64,000 nucleotides of DNA from Parcubacteria group bacterium RIFCSPLOWO2_01_FULL_48_18 (lineage in GTDB: Bacteria; Patescibacteriota; Minisyncoccia; UBA6257; WO2-01-48-18), in NCBI GenBank assembly GCA_001824435.1, contig MHXH01000018.1, forward strand, positions 1,458-65,457, read 5' to 3'. Positions 7,601-60,421 of this stretch are shown here, in pieces; the first letter of the stretch is position 1; every line of letters begins with the position of its first letter. The notes under the pieces were generated by a model. The model made no database searches. It worked only from the letters and a program-made list of their open reading frames with translations, and was not told where the DNA came from. The position numbers were made by a program, and so were the translations under genes.

Positions 7601-9905
7601 CACCCGACCCGGAATCAAACATCGAGTCAGCATTCGAAGTCGATCGCGCTTTTCGTTCAAGAGAGTTATTTAGGCCCAATTGCGGCGACGATGAACCCTC
7701 TACGAGACCCTGCGTTCCCCAGCCAAGCCGATCAATAATTCCTTGCGCGTCTGCCGCGATCGGCGAGAGACTTATGGTAACCCCGCTTGAGGTAGCAAGC
7801 GTTGTACCCACGGGGTTATACGTAGCATCAGGAGAGGTTATATCAGAATAACCGCTCTCCGGGGTAAATAAGTAGAAGCTCCTCGGTTGGAGCACCGAAC
7901 GGTTAACCGTAAGAGCCTTATGGGATGCGGTCGAACTTGCGTCGGCAAGGTGCAGAAATATCCGCTGTGGAGAAGTACGGGCAAGCTTAAGATCCCCGTT
8001 GGTAAAGTCTTGATAGATAACAAAATAGGTGCTCGCGTCGTACGCGTATAGAGATGTGTATCGGCCGACGTCTCCGATATTGTCCAAGGTGTAAAACGTC
8101 CATGTCGTTCCACCGTTTACTGATTTTGCAAATTTAAGATTGTTATTGGCGGCATCTAGATACGTAATAAAAATCGTGCTTGCATCGATCGCAACAAGAG
8201 ATGTGTATTGGCCGACGCTGCCTTGAGAGTCTATGGTTGAGGTAGTCCACGAAGCACCGCCGTTTACGGTTTTGGCGAAACGAAGATCTAATCCATCCGA
8301 TTCGTAATAGCTGATAAAGTATGTGTTCGCGTTGACTGCCCGGATGGATGTTTGCCCGTAGATATTCCCGGCCGCATCAATGGTTGTAGTGCTAAATACT
8401 GCGCCGCCGTCTGTGGACTTCGCGAACTTCAAATCTCCATTACCATGATTCCGGTAGCTTACGATAATGGTGCTTGTGCCGATTCCGTGCACCGAAGTGT
8501 TTTGGCCCATTACGACTCCGGCTGAGTCGAGCGTTGATGTTGTCCACGCTGCGCCGCCGTTGTTTGACCTTGCAAAACGAAGCGACGTAGCGCCCGTATT
8601 GTCGTAGTAACTGATGTAGAAATTGCTGGCGTCCGAGGCGTAGAGCGAAAGATCACGCCCTTGATCTCCCGCGCTATCTATGGTTGAAGTTGTCCATGCT
8701 GTGCCGCCGTTTGTGGATTTTGCGAACTTTAGGTCGAGCGCGGTGAAATCAAAGTAAGCGATAAAAATCGTGCTTGTGCCGATTGATTGCAAGGCGCTGT
8801 ACGACCCCACGTCGTTAGCGCCCCCGTTATCGACAACCACTGTTGTCCAGCTTGATCCGCTGTCCAAAGATTTTGCGAACTTAAGATTACCGTTCGTATT
8901 GTCGTAATAGCTCGCGTAGAGCGTTTGCGCGTCTACCGCGATAATTTGCATCGGTCCCGAACCGATTTCGCCCGTCGTATCAATCGGCCCCGTGGACCAA
9001 TTCGTCCCTCCGGGAGAAAGGTTAAGCGCCATGTCGCCCGTATTATAAAGCTCGACAAATTCATTGAGTTCGTTTCCGGTCTTTCCTCTTCGAACTTCAG
9101 AAATCTTTAGGTTGGGAGTAATACGGTGCGTTGTGGTCGCGATCGCATTGCCGACAATATCTTTAAAATCGGCGCCGATCTGAAGCGTATCTCCCGGAGC
9201 AAACGTAATTACGGCTCCCGTAGCGCTTATATTCACGATTTGCCGATTTCTACAGGCAGAAGGGGGGTCGCATATTATTCCCGGAAGCTGGGTTTGCACC
9301 TCCGAATCACCAGAATTCTCGGTTGAAATGACGTAGGTTGAAGTGACGCCGCTTACTCCCGAAAATCGTAAATCTTCATTGGCAAAGACTAAAATAGAAC
9401 CGGTGTTTTGAAGCACAACGTTTCGTATGACGGGCGCCGCAGTATCTTCGGTTCCTGGAGTAAATTGGATAGTTGATGATCCGGTGACGCACGCTTCATT
9501 CGCGTTATTCCAAATTTGACTTGCGGCACAGGCGATCGAAAGCTGACCCGATGATGTAACGTTTAGATTGGGGCTTATGGTGAGGGAAATGACTCGGTCT
9601 CCCGGTTCGGGAAAGGTATCGGGACTTAACGTATACGCGCTTGAACTTGCGCCGGTCAAGGCAAAATCTGTTGATGTCACCGCGCCGATTGAGCCGGTGG
9701 CGGTGTAAAGCGGTTGATCGAAAATAAGCCCAATTTTATTTTGTCCGTTTTTCCATTTGAGTTCGGTAAGCTGCGGCGCAGCCGCGAACGCATCGTCTGC
9801 GGGAAAAACAGAGAAAAATAAAAAAACGCCGACTGCGACGCAAAAAATAACAACTTTTTTAGGGATCGTCGCCGTGGCCAAAAATTCTTGAAATGCGTTT
9901 ATCAT
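1662..9905 (-). CDS. Giant secreted cell-surface protein (about 2747 aa). It has a lamin-tail-like segment, Asp-box/BNR-like beta-propeller repeats, multiple CarboxypepD_reg-like beta-sandwich domains, a Pro-rich linker and two C-terminal peptidoglycan-binding (PG_binding_1) repeats.
   Basis: The ORF runs 1662..10172. The probable start is the in-frame ATG at 9905 (MINAFQEF...), which gives an immediate signal peptide; the upstream 267 nt overlap the 10087-10272 inverted-repeat element. Repeats LKFAKS(x)NGG(x)WTT recur about 8 times with about 44-aa spacing. ISEV..NELNEFVELYNTGD is lamin-tail-like. Domains of the form G.V.D..G.P..GA.V.......TDA.G.Y.L are present. The PPPPPPSTVTPPPPAP linker precedes 2x LKLGDSGDTVKTLQQFLKDEGVYPEGLVTGYFGLLTKAAVIRFQ. 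Confidence 0.8.
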   Translation of the reverse strand: MINAFQEFLATATIPKKVVIFCVAVGVFLFFSVFPADDAFAAAPQLTELKWKNGQNKIGLIFDQPLYTATGSIGAVTSTDFALTGASSSAYTLSPDTFPEPGDRVISLTISPNLNVTSSGQLSIACAASQIWNNANEACVTGSSTIQFTPGTEDTAAPVIRNVVLQNTGSILVFANEDLRFSGVSGVTSTYVISTENSGDSEVQTQLPGIICDPPSACRNRQIVNISATGAVITFAPGDTLQIGADFKDIVGNAIATTTHRITPNLKISEVRRGKTGNELNEFVELYNTGDMALNLSPGGTNWSTGPIDTTGEIGSGPMQIIAVDAQTLYASYYDNTNGNLKFAKSLDSGSSWTTVVVDNGGANDVGSYSALQSIGTSTIFIAYFDFTALDLKFAKSTNGGTAWTTSTIDSAGDQGRDLSLYASDASNFYISYYDNTGATSLRFARSNNGGAAWTTSTLDSAGVVMGQNTSVHGIGTSTIIVSYRNHGNGDLKFAKSTDGGAVFSTTTIDAAGNIYGQTSIRAVNANTYFISYYESDGLDLRFAKTVNGGASWTTSTIDSQGSVGQYTSLVAIDASTIFITYLDAANNNLKFAKSVNGGTTWTFYTLDNIGDVGRYTSLYAYDASTYFVIYQDFTNGDLKLARTSPQRIFLHLADASSTASHKALTVNRSVLQPRSFYLFTPESGYSDITSPDATYNPVGTTLATSSGVTISLSPIAADAQGIIDRLGWGTQGLVEGSSSPQLGLNNSLERKARSTSNADSMFDSGSGDSDISDVFGGNGYDTDNNAANFVTQTTSTPQNSLSASEFPSGGPQGDTGPPYVQFSFPGPNDSNIPRDIPSIGFGFNEPVDNLTITSSTVLLRKVGPDGQAETGDDISVSGTVVINDPNDFTKPPYEFRAALEGGTTYVFKVLGGATSSCTTCVKDFAGQALNQSGRLVNGQGATSTDGISFRVVFSVGSGTITPTFPPFVEGTMPFPGSVVPPNISKVGIKFTAKIASSSANSGTINLSKLNTDGTKIAVTTSNFTLPLAFNDEVVQFDATFASSSRYEIGVTTGVKSKDNIFLGSPFFASFETLASNDATPPKVVASIPAAGATNLQRTKTKIIAHSDDDLDPATIFGTTNVVLKDAGPDNVFAATSTDDIEFPGIFEYDFFNKDVFFVATNPFVLGRNYRLTIKSGASGVKNIVGLQFDGDGNGTAGDDYNLNFTVESANTDTAGPAVVFARAHDFGAAVTFSEPVPTGEVTLFSKYSFESPSGTPVVLSAIGGQRIDYDEVDNTIFVENLKLVPGNSFKLIISPLPDLIGNLSATSTFNGTVEQASFFGGELDPGAGSVMGPMTPPPGGTIGFIPSAHVFPFSMLPNATTTYGVELPISKQIPSGGRIELTFPSGFGIGGAKKEPQSPTNNDLNGPGPGTPAFSTSTEASGGASDDGVTIDTVSNVVKITLAGTTRSESGDQHDFIHLDIAGIKNTAIPRDFNTGGYTVGMKTYDASGTLLESVGAEAFFILAGGNFTLRGQITNASSGAAINDARLVVFSPMTGPAPLVTANLTFGTSSDDGRYSADSLVGGDYFVVTEPFFTVGGADYVGSSFPTPVRVDSASCVSNICTRNFTVTPVSSTAAVGIAVKLTHATNTFSASEELDVLAGGPANFSVRTVTPGAGSRSASDPAITTLYLNQNGRWFVGVGPAMPKGLSFFFAGPPTPPNWIMPQPLDIEVSGCPSACAVTIATATFNIRVADKTVTGQVVNGSGLGIGGAEVYAYSPIEKMGTRAQTGSDGSFSLRAIEGMFLAGVFVPGMPSGNEISVRIDSAGQLFIGSDPTPKANIVIKVVKPDFSISGKAVDDSSNVVQGASIYAYRTDGLGHTEAYTDASGLYTLYVGNGTWNVGAFIPGFGSLPERTVVVSGANATGINFSPTTAGVTFRSISGTVCRDNNGNSSCDAGEEFSNVNVYAEALISSVYRFNDALTNASGSYTLKVPANTGASDTYTIRSFSPTVGELGKITVDVSSTDATGRNIVAGAPNTITFNFSTTTTKLFVDVFDPSTNRGNVFEAQNVTSTSLQVPSSTSYILKLSLDGMNIPKENATGTGYASSTAALDASVNRTITVTLPTLVTISGTTYRDSTSNTLSDVWVEVMSTSTRYRVGAKSTSTGAFSLRAPAGDYTIVGSKPGYIGKPTAISVGAGGSSGAQLILYEATLSVSGLVYRDANSNSTFDSGEAVANAMVRAVDSDSSFVTTAADINGAYSLKLTSVAGTWTISALADSYGQGTAGPYAGNAPPSTLNINLGSTISTNKPLTKSMTPSAGGVHSDTNSGVEMVFPANALGTSQNSAQITIKETANIPITGTANPVGSTGIEIDAVDANGSPITTLSGASTLKITKTKQQMSDSGDFGSLAALGTIDEVALTYFDESTQSWVSAPTSIDVLIKNNSGDAFVSVDPATFASNMSSGLDNPNATGTNTGIDYYADFQITYKGSFEHLTRFAIVGAAVATPSAASTGSSGGGGTPSSPSPSSQPSSEPVTSVTPLPSSTQLAVAPPPPPPSTVTPPPPAPVTALPPAVVVPPPAVALPPVLAKSLKLGDSGDTVKTLQQFLKDEGVYPEGLVTGYFGLLTKAAVIRFQEKYASEVLVPAGLTKGTGFVGSSTRAKINALAKLKALAEKKPEVPRLKLAVSRLEKNLALGAKGDDVKALQQLLKDEGVYPEGLVTGYFGLLTKAAVIRFQEKYASEILAPNGLTSGNGFIGPSTRTKLNSLIK

Positions 9906-10086
9906 AATTTTACGCCCGACGAATCCGTCCGCCAAAAACAGTACAGTATTGAAGTCATTATAATAAATCCGTGTAGAATCGCAAAACAGAGGACCTGTGG
10001 ATAAGTAGAAACATTGCTTGGGTTTTTCTTTGATACGTTTTTGATGATTTATAAAACCGCATTCTAAGACTCCCAAGTTCTTCAAG

Positions 10087-10272
10087 TCTAAGGGCTTGTA
10101 AATAAATAACCTTCCCATCTCGCTTCCATCTTCACCCCATCTTCGGCTTTTCCTCAATCGCAGAATCTTCACCGTAGCGCTGCTACGCTTCAGATTCCGC
10201 TCAATCGGAAAAACCGAATCTGGGGCAAATCTGTAACCGAATCTGCAAAGGTTATTTATTTACAAGCCCTAA
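10087..10272. repeat. Intergenic inverted-repeat element: 23-bp perfect terminal inverted repeats (26 bp with one mismatch) around a roughly 133-bp internally quasi-palindromic core
   Basis: AGGGCTTGTAAATAAATAACCTT at 10091-10113 is the exact reverse complement of AAGGTTATTTATTTACAAGCCCT at 10247-10269. The core has imperfect dyad symmetry (ccccatcttcgg...ccgaatctgggg) and direct repeats of ccgaatctg. Confidence 0.85.
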
Positions 10273-13790: not shown

Positions 13791-13878
13791 TGGTGCCCGG
13801 GGTGGGAGTCGAACCCACAAGCCCTGTTAGGGGCCGAGGATTTTAAGTCCTCTGCGTAAACCATTCCGCCACCCGGGC
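13791..13878 (-). tRNA. tRNA-Leu (anticodon TAA), type II, CCA encoded
   Basis: Reverse complement gives GCCCGGGTGGCGGAATGG...GAGGA-CTTAAAA-TCCTC...GGGTTCGACTCCCACCCCGGGCACCA. Confidence 0.85.
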
Positions 13879-13993: not shown

Positions 13994-14053
13994 TTGGTTA
14001 CAAACAGCAATCCCGCTCAAAAATTGGTTACAAACAGCAATCCCGCTCAAAAA
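13994..14053. repeat. Perfect tandem direct repeat, 2 x 30 bp (TTGGTTACAAACAGCAATCCCGCTCAAAAA), immediately 3' of tRNA-Cys
   Basis: Exact duplication at 13994-14023 and 14024-14053. Confidence 0.9.
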
Positions 14054-14061
14054 TTTGACCG

Positions 14062-14133
14062 AGGCCGGGATGGGAATCGAACCCACGTATAAGAGTTTTG
14101 CAGACTCTCGCCTTACCACTTGGCTACCCGGCC
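14062..14133 (-). tRNA. tRNA-Cys (anticodon GCA)
   Basis: Reverse complement GGCCGGGTAGCCAAGTGGTAAGGCGAGAGT-CTGCAAA-ACTCT...GTGGGTTCGATTCCCATCCCGGCCT; discriminator U, no encoded CCA. Confidence 0.8.
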
Positions 14134-27285: not shown

Positions 27286-27385
27286 TACTTCATCAACTTA
27301 ATTTTGCCTGCTCTGTGACAAAAAACTGTGTGTATGAGATGTTTTGTGGCAACGACGGCATCAAAATTAAGTTAATTCAGCACTA

Positions 27386-27456
27386 GCTTGTAGCTTTTTA
27401 ACTTGTAGCTTCTTAGATAATCCTACAAGCTACAAGCTACAAGCTAACAGCTAACC
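27386..27456. promoter_or_regulatory. Array of CTTGTAGC / GCTACAAG motifs (two direct, three or more inverted) directly upstream of the solute-binding protein gene
   Basis: agCTTGTAGCt, aaCTTGTAGCtt, then cCTACAAGCTACAAGCTACAAGCTAACAGCTAACc. Confidence 0.4.
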
Positions 27457-27457
27457 T

Positions 27458-28792
27458 GTGCATTTCGATCGCCGCCAACTCATTCTCATAGGCTTTGTCG
27501 CGCTCATCATTGTCGGCGCGGTGATTACGTATCTTTTCGGCCGCAAAGATCCGATGAATCAACCGCGGGGAGAAGAGACTAGCATTGTTATGTGGGGCGT
27601 ATACGATCCCATCAGTTTTTACGATGCGGCTGCCGCGAACTATTATGCGCAGAAAAACGCCGACGCCAAAATCATATACTACCAGATGGACCCCGAAACG
27701 TATGAAGAGGACCTGCTCAACGCGCTGGCCGCCGGAGAAGGACCGGATATTTTCATGATCCACAACACGTGGATCCCTAAGCACTTCAACAAGATCTGGT
27801 ACGCCAATGAATCCATGGTTACGGCCGCAACAGCAGAACCGCTGTTCCCCGAAGTCGTCATGGGCGATTTTGCGCCCCAGGGATCTGTCTATGCGCTTCC
27901 TCTATCCATTGATACGCTCGCCCTCTATTACAACAAGGATCTATTTGATCAGGCGGGAATCGCGCTCCCCCCGAAAACGTGGAGCGAGTTCGAAGCGGCG
28001 GCAGATAAACTAAAGAAGATTGACCGTGTTACCGGCAAAGTGATCCGCGCCGGCGCCGCGCTTGGCGGCTCGGCCAAAAGCATCAGCCGCGCTGCGGATA
28101 TTGTATCTCTCTTAATGCTCCAGCGCAGGGCACAGATGGTAAGCGACGGCTTTGATCGCGCAACATTCGGCGCGGAAACCGGAGACCTGTTCAGCGGCAG
28201 TAATCCCGGCCTCGAGGCCCTGGAATTTTATACGAAATTCGCCAATCCGTATGCCCTGCAGTTTACGTGGTCCGACGACTTTTCTACTGCAATCGATGCG
28301 TTTTCCGAAGGAAGCGCGGCGATGATGCTTGGCTACCTCAGCGAGCAGCCGAACATACGCGAGAAAAATCCGTTTCTCAATTTCGGCATCGCGCCGATGC
28401 TCCAACAAAACCCCGATGCGCCGGTTAACTACGCAAGCTACTGGGGATATACCGTACGGGCAAATTCGGAGAACTACCATGCGGCGTGGGATTTTATTCT
28501 TTTCCTGACCACGCAAGAAGATCAGGCAAGGGTTTACATGGACGCGAGCGGCAAACCGCCGGCGCTGCGCGCGCTCATCGGCGAAAAAATAAACGATTCC
28601 CGTCTCGGCGCATTCGCGCGCCAATCGCTGACTGCGCGTTCATGGCTTCAACCGGACAGCCGCGCGGTTGATGCGATTTTTTCCGATATGATACAATCAG
28701 TAATAACAGGAAGGTTCGGCCTCGACGAAGCGCTTTCCAATGCCGAACGGGAAGTAACGGCGCTTATCGAACGGTCAAGGTTTATGAAGTAA
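27458..28792 (+). CDS. Extracellular solute-binding protein (ABC transporter SBP family 1-like), membrane-anchored; no adjacent permease or ATPase
   Basis: N-terminal TM helix, then a sugar-SBP-like fold (IVMWGVYDP...DIFMIHNTWIPKH...YALPLSIDTLALYYNKDLF..PPKTWSEF). Confidence 0.65.
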   Translation: MHFDRRQLILIGFVALIIVGAVITYLFGRKDPMNQPRGEETSIVMWGVYDPISFYDAAAANYYAQKNADAKIIYYQMDPETYEEDLLNALAAGEGPDIFMIHNTWIPKHFNKIWYANESMVTAATAEPLFPEVVMGDFAPQGSVYALPLSIDTLALYYNKDLFDQAGIALPPKTWSEFEAAADKLKKIDRVTGKVIRAGAALGGSAKSISRAADIVSLLMLQRRAQMVSDGFDRATFGAETGDLFSGSNPGLEALEFYTKFANPYALQFTWSDDFSTAIDAFSEGSAAMMLGYLSEQPNIREKNPFLNFGIAPMLQQNPDAPVNYASYWGYTVRANSENYHAAWDFILFLTTQEDQARVYMDASGKPPALRALIGEKINDSRLGAFARQSLTARSWLQPDSRAVDAIFSDMIQSVITGRFGLDEALSNAEREVTALIERSRFMK

Positions 28793-46328: not shown

Positions 46329-49300
46329 TTGTCAATGAAAAAATACAATTTTAGAACAATCGAATCGTTCTGGCAGAAAGAATGGCGCACGGAACAAATC
46401 CATGAGCCGAACTTCTCGCGACCGCAAAAACCCTTTCGGCAAGCTCTTCAGCCGCGAGCTCAGGGCCGAGTGGCTCGGGGCAGGCCTTTTTATAATCTCA
46501 TGATGTTCCCGTATCCGTCTGCCGAAGGACTCCATGTCGGCAATATGTACGCATTCACCGGCTCGGACATTTACGGCAGGTTTAAACGCATGCAAGGATA
46601 TGACGTATTCGAACCGATCGGGCTTGACGGCTTTGGCATCCACAGCGAAAACTACGCGCTCAAAACCAACCAGCATCCGATGAAACTTGCGGAAAAATCA
46701 GAGAAGAATTTTTACCGCCAGCTCCGGATGCTCGGAAACAGTTTTGCATGGAACGAAACGCTCGAAACCTACGATCCGGAATATTACAAGTGGACCCAAT
46801 GGATTTTAACGGAAATGTTCAAACGCGGGCTCATGTACCGGAAGAAGGCAGCGGTGAATTGGTGCCCATCGTGCAAAACCGTGCTTGCGGATGAACAAGT
46901 TTTGCAGAAATCTCAAGTCTCAAGTCCCAAATCTCAAAAAAACTCCAAACCCCAAATTCCAAATTCTGAACAAGACAAAGAAAATATTCCATATTCCAAA
47001 TTCCATATTCCAAATTCCAAAGTAGGGGCGTGCGAGAGATGCGAGACGCCGGTCGTGAAAAAAGAACTTGAACAGTGGTTTTTGAAAATTACGGATTATG
47101 CCGAACGGCTCTTGAGCGATCTGGAGAAAATCGATTGGTCTGAAAAAGTAAAAATCGCGCAGAGGAATTGGATCGGAAAATCTGAAGGAGCGGAGATTGA
47201 TTTTGAAATCCGGACGAAAGAAAAACCTAATTTCGTCCTACTTCACGGCTACACCGGGTCGCCAAAGCATAACTTCTTTCCTTGGCTTAAAAAAGAACTG
47301 GAGAAACGGGGATACAAGGTTCAGTCTCCAACCTTGCCGCATAGCGACGCATCCCGCGCAAACGAGAATGACGATATGGATGCGTTTCGGAAACAGGTGG
47401 AGTTAAACAGAAATACCGTACTTCTCGGCCATAGTTTGGGAACAATTGTGGCAATGAAGGCTCTTGAAAAGTTGGATTACCCGATCCGCAAACTTGCACT
47501 CGTTGGCGGATTTCTTGAGCCGCGCTTCCGCGACCACGCCCGATCCTTCACCAAAACGTTCAATTGGCGCTTTAACTTCGAAAAGATTAGGACGAACGCC
47601 GGAAAAATCACGATATTACATGACCCTAACGACCGAGCTATCCCATACGATCAGGGCGTGAAGCTCCACGACGCGCTCGGCGGCGAACTTATCGAGCCAA
47701 TACCGAAAAAATCACACTTCTGCGGAAAGGAAGAACCGGAAATTTTAAAATATGCTCTTGATCGTCTTACCGTCTTCACCACGCGACCGGACACGATTTT
47801 TGGCGCAACCTATATGGTGCTGGCGCCGGAACATCCGCTAGTCAAGAATCTGGAATCTGGAATTTTGAATTTGGAAAGAGTTAAAGATTATATCCGAAAA
47901 ACAAAAAACAAATCAGAGGAAGAACGAATTGCCGATGGGCGCGAAAAGACCGGTGTTGAACTAAAAGGAATAAAAGCAATAAATCCCGCAAACGGCGAAG
48001 AAATTCCGGTGTGGGTCGCGGATTATGTATTGAATTCGGTGGGCACAGGAGCAATCATGGCCGTGCCAGCGCACGATGAGCGAGATTTTGAGTTTGCGAA
48101 GAAATACAAACTGCCCATCATAGAGGTCGTTGAGCCCTTATTTGTAAAAACCGATGACATAGACGGAGTTCGCCCCGGATTGCCTCTTAAGGAGAGAAGC
48201 GCAATCGTTGCGGTTGTGAAGCACTGGTCCGAGGACAAATATCTTTGTCTAAAATGGAAAAAAACGGATTGGCGGGGATTTATTATTGGCGGCATCGAGG
48301 AAGACGAGGATATGGCTGAAGCCGCGGCTCGCGAGATTCGCGAAGAAACCGGTTATGCATCGGCAAGGTTTATCAGGAACTTAGGCGGTATTGTCCACGC
48401 GCGGTTTTATCATGCGGTGAAGAACGAAAATCGATGGGCCCGTTTTCACGGCTTATATTTTGAGTTAGCTGACGGAACAAGAGAGAAAATCTCCGACGAG
48501 GAAAAACAGATTCACGACGTGGTTTGGGTAGACAGAAAAGAAGTTGACCATTTCCTTGATTGGGTTACGGATATGCGTTTGATATGGCATAGGGTCTCAA
48601 GCCCGGACGACTTTCCCGGCCGGAACGACATTCACGAATCAAGCCGGGTAAACAAACAAGGTGTTTTAGCGTGCTCGGGGGAATTTAACGGAATGAACTC
48701 AGGGGAGGCGAAATGGAAGATCACCAATTTTGTAGGCGGCAAGCGGGGGAATCGGTATCGTCTCCGCGACTGGTTAATATCGCGCCAGCGCTACTGGGGG
48801 CCGCCAATACCGCTAATTTTTTGCGAAAACTGTGCAAACAAAATTAAGGAAGCCCCTCGACAAGCTCGGGGCAAATTCACCAAAGGTGAATTTGAAAACC
48901 CCGGATGGATTCCGGTGCCGGAAAAAGACTTACCCGTAAAACTTCCGTATGTAAAAGGTTTTCGACCCAGGGGAAAGGGGCAGTCGCCGCTTGCTTCGGT
49001 AAAATCTTTTTATGAGGTAAACTGCCCACGCTGCGGCAGTAGAGCGCGCGGAGAAACTGATGTTTCTGACACCTTTCTTGATTCTTCTTGGTATTACTTC
49101 GGCTACCTCGCAAAAGAAAATTCTAAATTCGAAATTCTAAATTCCAAATTCCGGGGCCGAGCAAAACAATGGCTGCCGGTTGACATGTATATCGGCGGGG
49201 CAGAGCATTCGGTTTTACATCTCCTTTACACACGTTTTATTACGAAAGTATTCCACGATTGGAAACTCATTAATTTCAACGAACCGTTTAAAAGATTCCG

Positions 49301-50099
49301 CGCTCACGGACTCCTTATAAAAGATGGCGCCAAAATGTCAAAGTCAAAGGGCAATGTCGTGAATCCTGATTTTTATATCAAGGAATTCGGCGCCGATGCG
49401 CTCCGGATGTATCTCATGTTTCTGGGGCCGTTTGAGCAAGGCGGCGATTTTCAGGATCGAGGAATACTGGGGATAACGAGATTTTTAGAAAGAGTGTGGA
49501 ACTTGTGTCAAAAATCCGAAATCCAAAATCCGAAATCCAAAACAAATTCTAATGACAAAAATCAAAATGACAAAAACATTGAAAGGGCCCTACACAAAAC
49601 CGTAAAAAAGGTTACCGAAGATATTGAAAACTTGCATTACAATACTGCAATCAGCGCGCTGATGATTTTGCTCAACGAAATGGAAAAAAACTCTTCTCGC
49701 TTGTCGCTCTTGGCTCTTCGCTCGTTTTTAAAATTGCTTGCTCCGTTTGCGCCGCATATCACCGAAGAATTGTGGTCCCGATTTTTTGATCCCCAAAAAT
49801 TGAAGACCCCCGATTCGCAAAGCGAATCGGGACACAATTCCTCCAAAAAGTATCGATCGGTCCACAAAGAATCGTGGCCCATATACGATCCAGCGTTAAC
49901 CGAGGAAGATACATTCAAGCTGGTCGTACAGGTAAACGGCAGAGTCCGTGATACGATTACCGCGCGAAAGGGAATCTCACAAAAAGAAGCAGAAGCGCTC
50001 GCGCGCACATCAGAGAACGTAATGCGTCACCTCGACAAAAAAGCCGCCAAAAAGATAATCCTTGTTAAGGATCGACTGATCAACTTTGTCCTCCAATAG
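46329..50099 (+). CDS. leuS: Leucyl-tRNA synthetase with inserted alpha/beta-hydrolase and Nudix domains and three low-complexity in-frame inserts (1256 aa)
   Basis: HVGNMY (HIGH variant), KMSKS, editing-domain blocks TTRPDTIFGATYMVLAPEHPL and GTGAIMAVPAHDERDFEFAKKYKLPI, NRYRLRDWLISRQRYWGPPIP. Inserted GHSLG esterase-like domain at about 47215-47770 and a Nudix box GGIEEDEDMAEAAAREIREETG at about 48190-48600. Confidence 0.9.
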   Translation: MSMKKYNFRTIESFWQKEWRTEQIHEPNFSRPQKPFRQALQPRAQGRVARGRPFYNLMMFPYPSAEGLHVGNMYAFTGSDIYGRFKRMQGYDVFEPIGLDGFGIHSENYALKTNQHPMKLAEKSEKNFYRQLRMLGNSFAWNETLETYDPEYYKWTQWILTEMFKRGLMYRKKAAVNWCPSCKTVLADEQVLQKSQVSSPKSQKNSKPQIPNSEQDKENIPYSKFHIPNSKVGACERCETPVVKKELEQWFLKITDYAERLLSDLEKIDWSEKVKIAQRNWIGKSEGAEIDFEIRTKEKPNFVLLHGYTGSPKHNFFPWLKKELEKRGYKVQSPTLPHSDASRANENDDMDAFRKQVELNRNTVLLGHSLGTIVAMKALEKLDYPIRKLALVGGFLEPRFRDHARSFTKTFNWRFNFEKIRTNAGKITILHDPNDRAIPYDQGVKLHDALGGELIEPIPKKSHFCGKEEPEILKYALDRLTVFTTRPDTIFGATYMVLAPEHPLVKNLESGILNLERVKDYIRKTKNKSEEERIADGREKTGVELKGIKAINPANGEEIPVWVADYVLNSVGTGAIMAVPAHDERDFEFAKKYKLPIIEVVEPLFVKTDDIDGVRPGLPLKERSAIVAVVKHWSEDKYLCLKWKKTDWRGFIIGGIEEDEDMAEAAAREIREETGYASARFIRNLGGIVHARFYHAVKNENRWARFHGLYFELADGTREKISDEEKQIHDVVWVDRKEVDHFLDWVTDMRLIWHRVSSPDDFPGRNDIHESSRVNKQGVLACSGEFNGMNSGEAKWKITNFVGGKRGNRYRLRDWLISRQRYWGPPIPLIFCENCANKIKEAPRQARGKFTKGEFENPGWIPVPEKDLPVKLPYVKGFRPRGKGQSPLASVKSFYEVNCPRCGSRARGETDVSDTFLDSSWYYFGYLAKENSKFEILNSKFRGRAKQWLPVDMYIGGAEHSVLHLLYTRFITKVFHDWKLINFNEPFKRFRAHGLLIKDGAKMSKSKGNVVNPDFYIKEFGADALRMYLMFLGPFEQGGDFQDRGILGITRFLERVWNLCQKSEIQNPKSKTNSNDKNQNDKNIERALHKTVKKVTEDIENLHYNTAISALMILLNEMEKNSSRLSLLALRSFLKLLAPFAPHITEELWSRFFDPQKLKTPDSQSESGHNSSKKYRSVHKESWPIYDPALTEEDTFKLVVQVNGRVRDTITARKGISQKEAEALARTSENVMRHLDKKAAKKIILVKDRLINFVLQ
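46909..47022. repeat. Short-unit repeat (TCTCAAGTC / CCAAATTCC / ATATTCCAAATTCC) inside the leuS reading frame
   Basis: Translates in frame as QKSQVSSPKSQKNSKPQIPNSEQDKENIPYSKFHIPNSK between the LeuS zinc-knuckle cysteines. Confidence 0.8.
49127..49153. repeat. AATTCTAAATTCGAAATTCTAAATTCCAAATTCC repeat copy inside leuS
   Basis: Encodes KENSKFEILNSKF. Confidence 0.7.
49511..49577. repeat. AAATCCGAAATCCAAAATCC... repeat copy inside leuS
   Basis: Encodes KSEIQNPKSKTNSNDKNQNDKN. Confidence 0.7.
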
Positions 50100-55441: not shown

Positions 55442-56839
55442 TCAGTTTGAACTACGCCACGTTCGCTCGCCCACGCGAACGAAGACAACCCATACGATCA
55501 TACATACAAGGAATGTAACGAACACAATCGCCGCCCTCTGGCCGCCGGTCAACTGAATTTCACTCTTCAGATACAGGAATCCGCCGCCAAAATCATCGAT
55601 GTTATTCGCGGTCATGCTCACGCGCTGAAACTTCGTTGCCGGATTCTTCAACCCCCACAACACGATCTCGAGAACGCCCGTGCCGTGCACGGTACGAATC
55701 TTTGCCCCTGGAAGAAGTTCCGCCCTCATGGAACCGATCACGGAATCCGGATCAAGACGAACGCCCTTCAGGTCGTTCTGCAGCGCAACGAGCATCTGAT
55801 CGTTGCCAAAAGGCATTCCAGTCGTGGCGCGGCCCCAGAGAACGCGTTCACCGTCCTGCGTTCCTAAAACGACAATAATGCTGTTCTTACTCAGGGCATC
55901 TCGTCCGAATACTGTCCGGTTTTGCCAGTGGGCCTTGAGCGCAAGGATATACTCATCCGGGGCCCTCACAATCTCTTCGCTCTTCGCGATGACAAGATGA
56001 AGATCACCCTGCAACTCGGGACCGAGCGCGGCATTCAGGTAATTCAGCGACATCTGCCACGTATTCGCGTTCGAAGGGCGAAACCCGACAAACGATATCT
56101 TGTCTGCCCAATAGAAGTTGTGGATTCCGCTTTGCGGAGAGGGCAACAGGTGTCGCGAAACAAATCGATCGATCTGGCTCGAATACTGTTTCAAAATCGT
56201 AAGATCGCTCGCGAGGATGTAATTCTCATAATTGTTCCGCTTCGTAACCGGTCCTGGCAAGGCCGAGTCGATTCGCGCCTTCGCATCCCTCCAGAAATCC
56301 GGAACGCCTACACCCGCACGATCAATAATGTTCTGCGGGACAGCTTTTTGTTTCCGCCACCGACGAAGATCAGGGTGGTACGGAAAACGGTTCGCCGCAA
56401 TGGTAAAGGGATCCAAGGTGGTATTAACCACAAATGTCCACTCTTCATCACAGTAAGGACAGTCGTGGTAGCATGTATCCCAACAAGTGCTGCAATTTTT
56501 CCCTTCTGAATCGCAATTGCATGGATGCGGATTGCATGGGTAAGAATCGCAGTCGTACTCCCAATAACATGGACCGTCGCGGCTGCACGGGATCTTCTCC
56601 CACACCACGCCGGTTTCCGAACCGTTCCAGTATTCACGGAAGGTGACGTTGTTATTTTTGGCCATACCCCAACCAATCTTTGCGGTAAGGGGTGCCAAAA
56701 CCAAACTGATGACGCTCATGCCGATCGCGTATTCGGTCCACGTAATAGAAAGATAACTGCCATTTCGATCGAGGGTGTATCGGATAATAAGACCGGCGAT
56801 ACCGGCCGCTATAATGCTGCCGAGGATTACGCCGAACAT
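55442..56839 (-). CDS. Membrane protein with an extracytoplasmic cysteine-rich module, hypothetical; transcribed immediately before lemA
   Basis: N- and C-terminal TM helices; CSRDGPCYWEYDCDSYPCNPHPCNCDSEGKNCSTCWDTCYHDCPYCDEEW has 16 Cys in about 50 aa. Confidence 0.5.
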   Translation of the reverse strand: MFGVILGSIIAAGIAGLIIRYTLDRNGSYLSITWTEYAIGMSVISLVLAPLTAKIGWGMAKNNNVTFREYWNGSETGVVWEKIPCSRDGPCYWEYDCDSYPCNPHPCNCDSEGKNCSTCWDTCYHDCPYCDEEWTFVVNTTLDPFTIAANRFPYHPDLRRWRKQKAVPQNIIDRAGVGVPDFWRDAKARIDSALPGPVTKRNNYENYILASDLTILKQYSSQIDRFVSRHLLPSPQSGIHNFYWADKISFVGFRPSNANTWQMSLNYLNAALGPELQGDLHLVIAKSEEIVRAPDEYILALKAHWQNRTVFGRDALSKNSIIVVLGTQDGERVLWGRATTGMPFGNDQMLVALQNDLKGVRLDPDSVIGSMRAELLPGAKIRTVHGTGVLEIVLWGLKNPATKFQRVSMTANNIDDFGGGFLYLKSEIQLTGGQRAAIVFVTFLVCMIVWVVFVRVGERTWRSSN

Positions 56840-56987
56840 AACACATTCCCTCCCTCTGTCGCATCGTTAAATAAGTTTTAAGAATCTAACCCATTATATA
56901 TCCACCGCGGTCCGCCTTGTCAAGTTCGGTCCGGAACCGCAAAGTATTGAAACTATCGAAGAAAGAGGGTACTATACCTGTGTATTA

Positions 56988-57045
56988 AATCTCCAATTCC
57001 CAATTTCCAAACAAAAAGTTTTAAACCCTAGGTTCTAAATTTCAA
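56988..57045. repeat. ATTCCAAAT/ATTCTAAAT-family repeat copy upstream of glmS
   Basis: aaatCTCCAATTCCCAATTTCCAAAcaaaaagttttaaaccctagGTTCTAAATTTCAATgc. Confidence 0.7.
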
Positions 57046-57148: not shown

Positions 57149-58972
57149 ATGTGCGGCATCGTTGGTTACATTGGTAAACGGCAAGCACTGCCCATAGGAC
57201 TGGCCGGCTTAGAGACTTTAGAATACCGCGGCTATGACAGCGCGGGTTTTGCAATTTGCAATCCGGGCCGCGTAACGCTGGTGAAACAGGTCGGCTACGT
57301 TCAACAACTTAAAGACAAAATCGAAAATCAGAATATAGCCGGCAACCTCTGCATACTCCATACAAGATGGGCAACGCATGGCACCCCGAACGAAGTAAAT
57401 GCGCATCCGCACCATGATTGCGCCGGTCGGGTTTATCTTGTCCATAACGGCATCATTGAAAACTATAAAGAACTCAAGAATTATCTTGGGCAGCGCGGCC
57501 ACGCATTTATTTCAGAAACCGACACCGAGGTCATGCCTCACCTTATCGAAGAGCTCCTTAAGGATGAGAACGATTTCAAGACGGCGCTTTTCAACGCCTT
57601 AAAAATGATCGAGGGGACGTATGCGTTCGCGATCATCAACAAAGAGGATCCGCACACTCTCTATGCCGCACGCCTTTCTTCTCCTCTGGTTATCGGCGTG
57701 GGCAACGAAGAGAACTTTCTGGCATCGGACCCATCAGCGCTCATTGAATCCACCAGAAAGGTCATCTACCTCAAAGACGGCGAAGTGGCGGAAATGACGA
57801 AAGACTCCATTGTCATTACCGACCTTGATCAGCGCCCCACCCCATTAAAAGTCGAACAGTTAGAATGGACTCTCGAGCAGGCGCAAAAAGGCAATTTTCC
57901 ACACTTCATGCTCAAAGAAATTTTCGAGGGACCGGAGGTGGTCAAAGCCGCAATACAAGGACGCCTCAAGCCACGCGAGCATCTTGTAAAATTGGGAGGG
58001 CTTGAGCTTGCGCAAAAAAGACTAAACGCCATGCGCCGTCTTATTATTCTCGCGTGCGGAACTTCATATTATGCAGGCCTTGTCGGCGAATACATTTTTG
58101 AAGAAATTGCAGGAATCCCGACCGAAGTGCATTTTGCTTCAGAATTTCGCTACCGCGAGGAGCCGTTTGAACCCGGAACCGTCGCGCTTGCCATTTCCCA
58201 GTCCGGAGAAACCGCCGATACGCTTGCGGCCCTACGCAAAGCGAAAAAAGCCGGACTACTAACTCTTGGCCTTGTCAATGTCGTGGGTTCGACTATCGCG
58301 CGGGAAACAGATGCAGGGGTATACAACCACGCAGGGCCGGAAATAGGCGTTGCCTCGACCAAGGCATTCCTCTCACAACTCACCACTCTAATACTTATGG
58401 CGCTCTACGTATCCAAAAAACGCGGCGCGTTCCACACGGCGTTGATGCAAGAACTTATGGAAATTCCAAAAAAAATTCAATCGATACTCGACGCATCAGA
58501 ACAAATACAGCAATTGGCGGCCACCTATGCCACGCATTCCAATTTTCTCTTTTTGGGAAGACGATATAATTATCCGGTTGCCCTGGAGGGCGCCTTAAAA
58601 CTCAAAGAAATTTCTTACATCCATGCCGAAGGATACGGCGCCGGGGAAATGAAGCACGGCCCCATCGCAATGGTCGGACCGGATTTTCCAACCATCGCAG
58701 TCGTACCCTCGAACAGCGTATCGGATAAGATGTATTCCAATATCCAGGAAATCAAGGCTCGTCGGGGACCGATGATTGCCGTCGCCACCGAGGGCGACGA
58801 ACACATCTCGTCGCTTGCCGACCATGTGCTGTATATTCCCAAAACCCTCGAGCCGCTTGAACCGCTTCTCTCGATTGTCCCGCTTCAACTGTTCGCATAC
58901 TACATGGGCACCAAACGCGGTTATAATGTAGATAGACCGAGAAATCTCGCAAAAAGCGTTACTGTTGAATAA
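57149..58972 (+). CDS. glmS: Glutamine--fructose-6-phosphate aminotransferase (isomerizing)
   Basis: Start chosen at MCGIVGY (N-terminal nucleophile Cys2); the ORF track begins at 57077 in the same frame. Two SIS domains and the C-terminal ...VDRPRNLAKSVTVE are present. Confidence 0.95.
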   Translation: MCGIVGYIGKRQALPIGLAGLETLEYRGYDSAGFAICNPGRVTLVKQVGYVQQLKDKIENQNIAGNLCILHTRWATHGTPNEVNAHPHHDCAGRVYLVHNGIIENYKELKNYLGQRGHAFISETDTEVMPHLIEELLKDENDFKTALFNALKMIEGTYAFAIINKEDPHTLYAARLSSPLVIGVGNEENFLASDPSALIESTRKVIYLKDGEVAEMTKDSIVITDLDQRPTPLKVEQLEWTLEQAQKGNFPHFMLKEIFEGPEVVKAAIQGRLKPREHLVKLGGLELAQKRLNAMRRLIILACGTSYYAGLVGEYIFEEIAGIPTEVHFASEFRYREEPFEPGTVALAISQSGETADTLAALRKAKKAGLLTLGLVNVVGSTIARETDAGVYNHAGPEIGVASTKAFLSQLTTLILMALYVSKKRGAFHTALMQELMEIPKKIQSILDASEQIQQLAATYATHSNFLFLGRRYNYPVALEGALKLKEISYIHAEGYGAGEMKHGPIAMVGPDFPTIAVVPSNSVSDKMYSNIQEIKARRGPMIAVATEGDEHISSLADHVLYIPKTLEPLEPLLSIVPLQLFAYYMGTKRGYNVDRPRNLAKSVTVE

Positions 58973-58990
58973 GAACCCCTAAAGGGGCGA

Positions 58991-59029
58991 GATTCCAAAT
59001 TCAAGATTCCAGATTCTAAATTCTAAACC
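58991..59029. repeat. ATTCCAAAT/ATTCTAAAT-family repeat copy downstream of glmS
   Basis: GATTCCAAATTCAAGATTCCAGATTCTAAATTCTAAACC. Confidence 0.7.
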
Positions 59030-60421
59030 TTGAACGCTCCTCTTGTTGTCATAGCCGTCATAATAGGTATTGTGATTCTGGTATATGTCGTCAACAACCC
59101 TCCGCCGATTCAGATGCAGGGCGTTGTTGAGGTTGGAAAAAATCAAACCGGGCCTACCGGCGCAAACGAAACTCCGGCGCCGGTCACCGGCGTGGTAGAA
59201 CAATCAACCCCTCCTTCGCGGCCGTCCGCGCAAACAAAAACTCCTCCACCTTCGCGTCCGGCTTCCCCGCAAAAATCCCCTTCGGCGTCCTCCCCGTGCG
59301 AGAAACCGTATATCAACGCATTTATCGGTTGCTATTATACAGGCACTGATCTTGACGAATTTAAATTCAGCCGCATAGATGCGCAAATTAATTTCGACTG
59401 GGGATTTAATGCTCCGGATGAACGCCTGTTTTCCGATATCTTTTCGGTGAAATGGAGCGGCTTTTTTGCTTTTGCGTCCGACACGTACGAATTCCAGGCG
59501 ACGAGCGACGACGGCATGCGGGCTTATGTTGACGGCAAGCTCATTCTCGACAAATGGTTCAAGCAAACACCGACACTCTACCGCGTACAAAAACATCTAA
59601 GCGCGGGCGCGCATACGGTCACGGTTGAATATTATGAAGACGGCGGCGGCGCAGTGGCAAAGCTTTCGTGGATGAAAGCAAACGAAGCCGCAAAAATCGC
59701 TCCACCCTCTCTCGCGTCAGACGCAGTTCCTCCGTCCGGCTTCCAACTGAAAGACCTGTCGCCGTTTTACGGAAAAGCGTGGCTGTCGATCTCTGGCGGA
59801 TGGTGGTACGGCAGCGGCTTTCCGTCAGTAGAGGTTGGATCCCGAGCCGCGAGCGGTGAATCAAAGCTGAACATCACCGGATGGCGAATTAAATCGAATA
59901 GGGACGAAATAACGGTGCCGCAGGCAGTGGAAATAGTGTATCCGGGTGGGGTCGGCGCTGCGCAAGACATCATGCTCGCATCAAATCAATTTGCCCGCAT
60001 CTTTCTCACCGGCGGCAGCGCCGGAAGCCAACTGGGCTATAACATCCGCTTGAATATGTGTACCGGCTATCTCAACGAAACGTACGGCTTTGATCCGGCG
60101 CTCCCCGTCTCCTGTCCGAGACCGTCATGGTCTGACGACGACCACCTTCCCGGTTATTGCCAAGATTACATTGCGCAAATATCCACGTGCACCACGCCGC
60201 AAGACATGCCGCTTTACATACAAAATGAAGAACCATGCCGCAATTTTATAAACGAACGCTTCGGTTATCCCGTCTGTTTTGAACAAAACCGGCTGCGTCC
60301 TAATTTCCTCTCCGATGAATGGCGAGTATATGTTAATCGTTCAAGCATCCTGGATCCCCTACACGACAGAGTTCTTCTGCTCGATAGGAACAGCCTTTTA
60401 GTGGATATGTATACCTATTAA
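59030..60421 (+). CDS. Membrane-anchored PA14-domain protein
   Basis: N-terminal TM; Pro/Ser linker; PA14 block FDWGFNAPDE..FSVKWSGFFAFASDTYEFQATSDDGMRAYVDGKLILDKW..HTVTVEYYEDGG; Cys-rich C-terminal region. Confidence 0.7.
   Translation: MNAPLVVIAVIIGIVILVYVVNNPPPIQMQGVVEVGKNQTGPTGANETPAPVTGVVEQSTPPSRPSAQTKTPPPSRPASPQKSPSASSPCEKPYINAFIGCYYTGTDLDEFKFSRIDAQINFDWGFNAPDERLFSDIFSVKWSGFFAFASDTYEFQATSDDGMRAYVDGKLILDKWFKQTPTLYRVQKHLSAGAHTVTVEYYEDGGGAVAKLSWMKANEAAKIAPPSLASDAVPPSGFQLKDLSPFYGKAWLSISGGWWYGSGFPSVEVGSRAASGESKLNITGWRIKSNRDEITVPQAVEIVYPGGVGAAQDIMLASNQFARIFLTGGSAGSQLGYNIRLNMCTGYLNETYGFDPALPVSCPRPSWSDDDHLPGYCQDYIAQISTCTTPQDMPLYIQNEEPCRNFINERFGYPVCFEQNRLRPNFLSDEWRVYVNRSSILDPLHDRVLLLDRNSLLVDMYTY

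Follow-up and report, generated by a model that had tools for sequence, protein, structure and literature searches.

Heptanucleotide repeat arrays lie in frame in leuS, and in intergenic spacers, across Patescibacteria

The window, as we call the whole 64,000-nucleotide stretch analysed here (contig MHXH01000018.1, positions 1,458 to 65,457, of Parcubacteria group bacterium RIFCSPLOWO2_01_FULL_48_18), contains a gene for leucyl-tRNA synthetase (LeuRS) that carries short tandem repeats. The gene, leuS (46335–50099, plus strand, 1,254 amino acids), was assigned by its open reading frame (ORF), by Pfam, by the gene call of the source contig and by alignment to solved LeuRS structures, and it hosts six arrays of period 7. 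Every one of them is translated in frame, as stated for the copies it saw by an earlier reading made from the letters of this stretch without database searches (hereafter the sequence-only reading). Further along the same strand lie glmS (57149–58972; gene call, Pfam and synteny in relatives) and a gene with a PA14 domain, with arrays of a similar unit in the spacers on both sides of glmS.

The first two leuS arrays together form a 39-residue insert relative to homologues and to Thermus LeuRS. In the alignment to Thermus thermophilus LeuRS (PDB 1H3N) it follows residue 173 and precedes residue 174, between the two halves of the ZN1 zinc site, which bears out the earlier placement of the first repeat between the zinc-binding cysteines. 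The array that makes up the first part of this insert (46908–46967, plus strand, residues 192–211) is degenerate, running from AAATCTC, AAGTCTC, AAGTCCC and AAATCTC to AAATTCC and AAATTCT, and was found by both Tandem Repeats Finder (TRF) and a lag scan. The one that makes up the second part (46982–47024, plus strand, residues 217–230, ‘IPYSKFHIPNSK’) holds five units of ATTCCAT/ATTCCAA and is perfect at period 14. The array-bearing insert peptide reads ‘NIPYSKFHIPNSK’. AlphaFold2 models of the two LeuRS halves are mediocre, with mean predicted local distance difference test (pLDDT) scores of 61 and 64, and lend weak support to calls of loop and disorder only; residues 194–229 were modelled at pLDDT below 50 and with no secondary structure.

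The third array (47842–47877, residues 504–514) lies in the editing domain and carries its AAATTCC/AGATTCC-type unit on the minus strand, the sense strand reading GAATCTG, GAATCTG, GAATTTT, GAATTTG and encoding ‘NLESGILNLE’. This segment has a fixed length and thus involves no insertion; it aligns to ‘LTLELAAPEKREEV’ of Thermus and sits in a confidently predicted fold at residues 500–520 (pLDDT 74–91, with helices at 501–505 and 513–524). The fourth array (49116–49154, plus strand, residues 928–940, ‘ENSKFEILNSKFR’) consists of AAATTCT, AAATTCG, AAATTCT, AAATTCC and AAATTCC and lies in the variable loop that precedes the ‘WLPVD’ motif in the 1H3N alignment, where it adds 12 bases to the 81-base baseline of most relatives; the loop is predicted with modest confidence. 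The fifth (49508–49543, plus strand, residues 1059–1069, ‘KSEIQNPKSK’) has 4.6 units of AAATCCG/AAATCCA, is again perfect at period 14, and occupies a length-variable linker before the anticodon-binding domain, a predicted loop between two helices. The sixth is a weak period-7 stretch with an unrelated unit (49690–49726, plus strand, residues 1119–1130; TCGCTTG, TCGCTCT, TGGCTCT, TCGCTCG; TRF score 33). The encoded peptides are hydrophilic (rich in K, N, S, Q, E and P) and most lie in variable loops.

In the glmS neighbourhood, an array at 58987–59029 (plus strand; AGATTCC, AAATTCA, AGATTCC, AGATTCT, AAATTCT and a terminal AAA) and a small hairpin at 58975–58988 take up the whole gap from the glmS stop (58972) to the TTG start (59030) at which the PA14-domain gene begins. 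The divergent spacer on the other side, between glmS and a gene of unknown function (55442–56839, minus strand), holds a weak three-unit array (56983–57010, plus strand; AATCTCC, AATTCCC, AATTTCC). Two arrays in inverted orientation (27384–27457, plus strand; AGCTTGT ... CTACAAG, three times), built from an unrelated unit, lie between gyrA and the gene of a solute-binding protein, form a hairpin (−30.9 kcal/mol, z = −4.5) and end at the GTG start of the latter gene. Period-7 arrays in this genome are thus also built from other units.

Each of the five places that the sequence-only reading pointed out does contain repeats, but the 9- and 8-base units it proposed do not describe them: the period is 7 and the unit AAATTCY, and its 9-mer, ATTCCAAAT, is one ATTCCAA unit followed by the first two bases of the next. 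TRF reports period 7 or 14 at 46908–46938, 46940–46963, 46986–47021, 49118–49151, 49511–49542 and 58990–59027, with 2.2–5.1 copies at periods 7 and 14 and a head-to-tail arrangement at all sites. Counting the word itself gave little signal, as the 9-mer is barely enriched (39 copies with at most one mismatch, compared with 29.9 ± 5.2 in shuffled sequence, a count of 39 being reached by 4 of 100 shuffles); the signal is the tandem arrangement. A strict scan, which requires at least 17 self-matches in 21 positions at a given lag, finds seven period-7 arrays in the window and none for each of the periods 5, 6 and 8–12, and 30 second-order Markov simulations gave no array for each of the periods 6–9. 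Lowering the threshold to 15 of 21 yields nine arrays, six in leuS and three in spacers (27416–27460, 56983–57010 and 58987–59035). The leuS sites of the sequence-only reading are thus real, but two arrays had been overlooked, the one on the opposite strand at 47842–47877 and the weak one at 49690–49726, the latter found only at the lower threshold. Its third site, given as 49511–49577, holds an array as far as 49543 and no 7-base array beyond, and the copy it placed upstream of glmS exists but fails 17 of 21 and passes only at 15. Other housekeeping genes of the window (those for FtsH, IF-2, S1, GyrA, RelA/SpoT and RecG) contain no array. The exact LeuRS protein occurs on six contigs from the Rifle aquifer and other metagenomes, and because the five contigs retrieved carry the region at 99.99–100% identity to the window (identical or one base different) in independent assemblies, the arrays are real and not an assembly artefact.

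The arrays extend far beyond this genome. We collected 80 leuS loci from GTDB species genomes, all Patescibacteria, which together with the window amount to 1.48 Mb; the sample is centred on leuS, and genes in the related loci (given L numbers below) were approximated as open frames of at least 100 amino acids. This sequence contains 129 period-7 arrays, compared with 10 or fewer for any other period from 4 to 15 except 14, and heptanucleotide simple-sequence repeats (SSRs) are an abundant class in Patescibacteria. The 50 kb around leuS in Escherichia coli K-12 contain no period-7 array. Units are diverse and mostly A-rich (AAATTGG, AAAATTG, AAAAATC, AAGAATC and AAATCTC, for example). Per 10 kb, the density is 2.43 arrays in leuS, 0.25 in other ORFs and 3.46 outside ORFs, the excess in leuS having a binomial p of 3e-19. 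Matches to leuS of 4.5–5.6 kb were considered as split or intron-bearing genes and turned out to be joined hits to an upstream LeuRS-like sequence, with tatD between. The four arrays in these joined stretches were dropped from the leuS count, which leaves 68; the tenfold contrast between leuS and other ORFs is conservative, because these four arrays, counted in leuS for the density, lay in non-leuS stretches that also entered the denominator. The under-representation in coding DNA that is typical of described heptamer SSRs does not hold here, six of the nine window arrays being inside leuS.

Within leuS the arrays have a strong strand preference. The sense strand is 46% A, and A exceeds T in 61 of the 68 arrays (p = 7e-12). 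Arrays between co-directional genes have an A-rich sense strand in a ratio of only 20:12, and a transcription-coupled mutational bias was rejected for this reason. Selection on the encoded peptide, together with selection against stop codons, best explains the preference seen in ORFs.

The leuS arrays also recur at the same places. Nearly all of those truly inside leuS (65 of 68) fall at nine positions, given here in the numbering of the window LeuRS: ~190–230 in the ZN1 zinc module; ~288–298/478 in the beta-hairpin (CP1) that leads into the editing domain, which is the point of hydrolase insertion in the lineage of the window; ~502–514 in the editing domain; ~835–855; ~926–941 in the variable loop before ‘WLPVD’; ~1057–1073 in the linker before the anticodon-binding domain; and ~1117–1129, ~1148–1174 and ~1206–1217. 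Two of these segments have a fixed length. The anchors P498 and I520 are exactly 69 bases apart in most loci, with or without periodicity, and G281 and R484 are 75 bases apart in lineages that lack the hydrolase, the same as in the aligned Thermus segment. At the editing-domain site the units are in register at Asn504 (‘AATnnnn’) but are lineage-specific and in many lineages near-perfect (3.7 copies of AATCTCA in L013, three of AGTTACC in L027, AGTATCA in L009, AATCACG in L044 and AATCTGG in the window), and the hairpin carries CAAAATT (‘FKIQNSKFKI’) in L037, L074 and L041 and CAATTTT (‘FSISNSQFSI’) in L060, L018, L008, L012 and L040. Self-identity at lag 7 is 0.45–0.46 at both fixed-length sites, compared with 0.17–0.32 in eight control segments of leuS; other lags at these sites give 0.20–0.36, and lag 14, twice the period, 0.42–0.44. 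Identity at lag 7 is also higher within a genome (0.45) than between genomes (0.37) at the fixed-length sites, and equal in the controls. This combination of a shared old periodicity with lineage-specific homogenisation indicates that a coding microsatellite evolves in concert here, with selection acting on the protein. At site 926–941, arrays add 12–36 bases over the 81-base baseline, with lineage-specific units and no constant block. Both unit sequence and copy number differ among relatives at the same locus, as seen at leuS 288/480, 502–514 and 926–941 and in the trmD linker described below.

The window LeuRS also carries two whole domains: a serine-hydrolase (alpha/beta hydrolase) domain (residues 298–454, window 47220–47700) within the hairpin leading to the editing domain, modelled at a pLDDT of about 90, and a NUDIX hydrolase domain (residues 632–741, window 48230–48560) within the editing region. 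Dozens of Patescibacteria LeuRS homologues have both domains or just one of them, and we found no paper in the open-access literature on LeuRS with NUDIX or hydrolase inserts. No remnants of heptamer arrays were found at the borders of the hydrolase insert or directly after the leuS stop.

Homologues of the window LeuRS belong to Patescibacteria (Paceibacteria, Liptonbacteria and related groups). The best match that 5.8 billion proteins offer is only 57% identical. Recent changes at the leuS arrays of the window cannot be traced because this homologue is so distant, and we used relatives of trmD instead. An independent scan of metagenome contigs for three copies of AAATTCN followed by AAATTC found at least 124 arrays on at least 120 contigs. 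Among the matches listed, 77 of 124 arrays lie in ORFs of at least 100 amino acids, five of them in leuS and 72 in other frames, and the remaining 47 have no long frame around them; in about 60 of the 72 the sense strand is the A-rich one, giving ‘NSKF[KQE]I[QPR]NSKF’. Pfam hosts among these listed matches are TrmD (three), PGK (two), MiaA (two), PolA, TGT, AlaRS, another class I synthetase and TsaD, as well as glycosyltransferases and transporters. Hosts that handle tRNA, among the at least 77 ORF-borne arrays, are LeuRS (five), TrmD (three), MiaA (two), TGT, TsaD, AlaRS and the other class I synthetase. The contigs of the listed matches (0.73 Mb, G+C 22–68%, not all of which need be Patescibacteria) contain 233 period-7 arrays, compared with 35 or fewer for any other period; with so many arrays on these contigs, a genome with one array tends to have many.

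TrmD of Patescibacteria has 7-residue-periodic peptides in the interdomain linker before ‘EYPQYTRP’, and a second loop of the protein also holds heptamer arrays. The two repeats share lineage-specific changes: KIKNQKSKIKNP, KIPNTKYQIPNT, KIRNPKSEIRNP. We compared the trmD DNA of five relatives at 70–76% protein identity (trmD at 58–876 in L091 and 1501–2316 in L206–L209; also located at 88–891 in L152). The linker DNA is four copies of AAATTCG in L091, three of GAATCAA in L207, alternating GAATCAT and GAATCAA in L209 and four of AAAAATC/T in L206, and in L208 it is decayed, with no array; its total length is 75–81 bases in all five. Such different units at 70–76% identity mean that arrays turn over faster than the surrounding gene diverges. 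Arrays are also inherited for a time, since L206 and L209 have an orthologous AGTTCCA array elsewhere in trmD.

Unit sharing is greater within genomes than between them. Among the six AAATTC-type arrays of the window, 10 of 15 pairs share an exact heptamer, and overall such sharing is found in 20.6% of within-genome pairs and 12.1% of between-genome pairs (permutation p ~0.0015). The arrays of the window form a family, which could reflect a genome-specific bias or exchange between arrays.

The position of glmS between two of these arrays is not evidence of movement. The gene lies downstream of leuS in eight relatives, with a gap from the leuS match to glmS of at most ~750 bases in L042, L056, L040 and L038 and a larger one in L013, L052 and L024, and in a ninth (L033) it is on the opposite strand and further off. 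Homologues of the PA14-domain gene come after leuS or glmS in 23 loci. Since relatives keep the leuS–glmS–PA14 order, glmS is in its ancestral context, which refutes the earlier proposal of a repeat-flanked cassette; those relatives have no arrays around glmS. Nor is the bracketing of the gene unusual, as the sequence-only reading had it: the intergenic DNA of the clade has about 3.5 arrays per 10 kb, so that arrays in two neighbouring spacers are unremarkable. Consensus scans for terminators and promoters at the glmS-flanking arrays returned just the small hairpin at 58975–58988 and nothing specific, and no Rfam family was found over the arrays or upstream of glmS, the only Rfam matches in the whole window being four tRNAs. 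The ~7 kb between leuS and glmS (50.1–57.0 kb) are new in this lineage and encode small unknown ORFs, a bpMoxR-type AAA ATPase, an S49 peptidase and two unknown proteins; judged by gene content and order, the stretch looks like a lineage-specific insertion or rearrangement. Among the neighbouring genes (MoxR-type ATPase, S49 peptidase, PA14 and unknowns), no integrase, transposase or recombinase domain was found.

We consider it likely that the arrays are heptanucleotide SSRs, that is, 7-base microsatellites, which arise by a period-7-specific DNA process, pass a filter of selection and are not mobile. A process at the DNA level would create short arrays of 4–6 units and keep the units alike. 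Its most likely step would be slippage, in which the nascent strand realigns out of register while DNA is replicated or repaired, and homogenisation may come from realignments that regain register before the same round of synthesis ends. Almost every array would survive in a spacer. In genes, an array would persist only if the frame is kept, if the sense strand is free of stop codons in all three phases and if the resulting peptide suits the site; a 7-base repeat read in all three phases gives a 7-residue peptide repeat, and (AAATTCN)3 would give N-S-K-F-x-I-x. That the array density of leuS is nearly intergenic would follow from the presence of at least nine tolerant sites in the protein. In the window, this would have given the zinc module its disordered 39-residue insert, lengthened two loops slightly and rewritten one stretch of the editing domain. 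The arrays may best be seen as a mutational by-product filtered by selection and, secondarily, as a source of new hydrophilic loop and linker sequence.

Several points weigh against this account. Slippage by one unit, or 7 bases, would frameshift an essential gene, and length-neutral homogenisation has to be assumed. The in-frame variants of plus or minus 21 bases that slippage predicts are not seen at the fixed-length sites. No copy-number polymorphism is seen among the six assemblies, which come from different samples but from one population, and consensus assemblies cannot show minor alleles. The account does not explain why the period is 7, and it leaves the favouring of leuS and, apparently, of other tRNA-handling enzymes unexplained; the arrays may have a function as DNA, as RNA or through the protein. 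Exchange between arrays, which is not expected from simple slippage, could lie behind the greater sharing of units within genomes.

Such exchange is the core of one alternative, in which templated transfer between arrays of the same genome, by ectopic gene conversion or microhomology-mediated repair, spreads and homogenises units with no mobile element. The excess of within-genome sharing (20.6% against 12.1%, and 10 of 15 window pairs), the single unit at two trmD sites of L207 and the family unit on the opposite strand at 47842–47877 fit this idea, but we regard it as unlikely: many genomes carry quite different units side by side (L037, L074 and L028), the site-specific register and core across lineages (‘AAT’ at Asn504) points to local evolution, and the excess could equally stem from genome-specific composition or codon preference. 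The sequence-only reading went further and proposed a dispersed mobile or recombinogenic short repeat, with glmS moved as a cassette between two copies. Although exact heptamers are shared far more often among the window arrays than between genomes, both glmS-flanking spacers hold an array in the same orientation and the two trmD sites of L207 have the same GAATCAA/GAATTAA unit, mobility is very improbable. The arrays have no fixed or defined element length, no ends and no inverted repeats; they span 28–60 bases with direct 7-base periodicity only, and at the three leuS sites compared (288/480, 502–514 and 926–941) no clean inserted block faces an empty site. Units differ between sites and lineages, two leuS sites carry arrays with no net insertion, and the glmS copy upstream is just three degenerate units. 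The conserved gene order in relatives that lack glmS arrays, and the absence of an integrase or transposase nearby, point the same way.

A functional role as cis-elements, with heptamer tracts read by a protein or the ribosome and the leuS copies acting on leuS mRNA, seems improbable as well. Candidate modes would be the attachment of cold-shock or S1-type proteins, one to each heptamer, promoter spacing (as for TTTTGAT at ctxAB) or translational leaders (as for TAACTGA). Two intergenic arrays end at start codons with no Shine–Dalgarno sequence (27457/27458 and 59029/59030), intergenic heptamer repeats occur near gene starts in Beggiatoaceae, Xanthomonas and Nostoc, and the enrichment in leuS and other tRNA-related genes calls for an explanation. 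That units are so diverse, in close relatives even at one and the same position, speaks against a sequence-specific reader, however; the strand bias is strong in ORFs and weak in spacers, as peptide selection predicts; and no Rfam family matches. That the peptides are ordinary low-complexity linkers, under selection for composition only and with an incidental DNA periodicity, is hardly tenable, even though they are hydrophilic and mostly lie in variable loops. A repeat at the protein level would give a DNA period of 21 or 3, not 7; periods 6 and 9, which ORFs tolerate freely, are almost absent; the same arrays occur in non-coding spacers; and perfect arrays persist where flanking synonymous sites are saturated. 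The corresponding segments in relatives are likewise repetitive 7-base DNA, with many copies elsewhere, so that the refutation which the sequence-only reading had proposed for itself fails, and its claim that a DNA-level repeat is tolerated inside an essential synthetase stands. A more far-reaching possibility, to which we give little credence, is an active, heptamer-specific writing of repeats, by a property of replication or repair or by a dedicated enzyme, that overwrites segments of essential genes while keeping frame and length and so generates protein segments. It might also mark points of later domain insertion (the hydrolase, at the CP1 hairpin), and the preference for LeuRS and tRNA enzymes might arise from K/N-rich peptides that bind tRNA. 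If true, repeat writing would be a standing generator of loops and linkers, of the LeuRS beta-hairpin and of the TrmD interdomain linker.

As repetitive DNA that is tolerated in frame in conserved, functional genes and at protein-surface positions, the arrays resemble the Rickettsia palindromic elements, which are palindromic units of 100–150 bp with a conserved sequence and are thought to be mobile. These are said to have been described by Ogata and colleagues in 2000 as selfish DNA inserted in frame in protein-coding genes. Unlike them, the arrays here measure 28–60 bases, are direct 7-base repeats and have no conserved element sequence.

A closer likeness is to the long SSRs of prokaryotes, of which heptanucleotide repeats are the most abundant class in many species, with polymerase slippage over a 7-base contact as the proposed cause (Mrazek et al. 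2007, as quoted in PMC4679880 and PMC4692102). Described heptamers include the STRR repeats of heterocystous cyanobacteria, GGGAATC in Xanthomonas, GGGGAYT in Nostoc and TAACTGA in Beggiatoaceae, and they are mainly intergenic and under-represented in coding DNA. Shared features are short head-to-tail arrays of typically about four units, a preference for period 7 over neighbouring periods, variation in length and sequence at the same locus, the location of many arrays within 50 bp of gene starts or ends, and hairpins formed by inverted arrays, which Xanthomonas has too (PMC4692102). The arrays described here differ in lying in frame in essential genes at almost intergenic density, in recurring at the same protein positions across a radiation of phylum rank, at two places as fixed-length structural segments, and in their A-rich units with no single dominant one, as opposed to G-rich units.

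The TAACTGA repeats of marine Beggiatoaceae and some cyanobacteria and Bacteroidetes likewise have two to six direct heptamer copies; they lie mostly just upstream of start codons, and one orientation can be translated as a 7-residue repeat (PMC4679880). There, however, a single heptamer dominates, related heptamers are rarely repeated, and the forward orientation contains stop codons and hence is almost excluded from ORFs (PMC4679880), whereas here many stop-free units are used and coding copies are common. Borgs likewise have A-rich tandem repeats (48% A, against a sense-strand value of 46% here). These have independent origins, change quickly and give proteins more disorder-promoting residues, and slippage is discussed as their source (PMC9879509). 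All Borg repeats in ORFs have units divisible by three (PMC9879509), unlike the unit of 7 here, with which every copy changes the reading phase and one peptide repeat spans three DNA units, and the hosts here are core housekeeping enzymes of a cellular genome. Phase-variable heptanucleotide tracts are known from the hmw1A promoter of Haemophilus influenzae and, as TTTTGAT, from the ctxAB promoter of Vibrio cholerae. Those tracts are tandem heptamers in promoter regions, a mode of action that is conceivable for the array in the divergent spacer before glmS and for the one before the PA14-domain gene. Unlike them, the arrays here show no copy-number variation among the six assemblies, and most copies lie in essential ORFs, where on–off switching would be lethal; it is implausible for the essential leuS.

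We found no description in the open-access literature of in-frame heptamer arrays in Patescibacteria, in aminoacyl-tRNA synthetases or in essential genes. Essential genes would be expected to lose microsatellites whose unit length does not divide by three, yet in this radiation of small-genome bacteria such repeats occur in frame in core enzymes that include LeuRS, TrmD, MiaA and PolA. They offer a natural system in which to ask why period 7 is favoured in bacterial slippage, how units are homogenised with no change in length and how new loop and linker sequence enters old proteins. On the practical side, array segments will mislead alignments, phylogenies and structure predictions of Patescibacteria marker proteins, and masking them is advisable.

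LeuRS carries other inserts besides. Its N-terminus (residues 27–50, window 46400–46480) contains a basic insert of 20 residues, ‘SRPQKPFRQALQPRAQGRVARG’, in a place that is taken in relatives by different ones, such as ‘FAPASAKATAGKKASKGKP’, and further insert families occur elsewhere in the alignment (‘INADGNADKRRYISENLRSNQRKS’ and ‘YADNTRTSAEKFPR’); from their peptides, these families look like translations of yet other short DNA repeats. In other lineages the same LeuRS loops hold GC-rich palindromic in-frame inserts, at 926–941 in L006, L010, L016 and L021, at 288/480 in L010, L022, L035 and L078, and also in L015, L047, L078 and L007. Examples are ‘STRSARSGQ’, from CTTCGACTCGCTC...CTCAGGGCAAG, and ‘VILNSFQDL...MLKPVQHD’. 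By their sequence they appear to be a second, separate class of small in-frame repeat, nearer in style to the Rickettsia palindromic elements.

Elsewhere in the window, a perfect repeat with a 30-base unit in 2.1 copies (TTGGTTACAAACAGCAATCCCGCTCAAAAA) occupies 13994–14055, between tRNA-Leu(taa) (13791–13878) and tRNA-Cys (14061–14133), and a single open frame of 2,836 amino acids extends over 1662–10172 on the minus strand.

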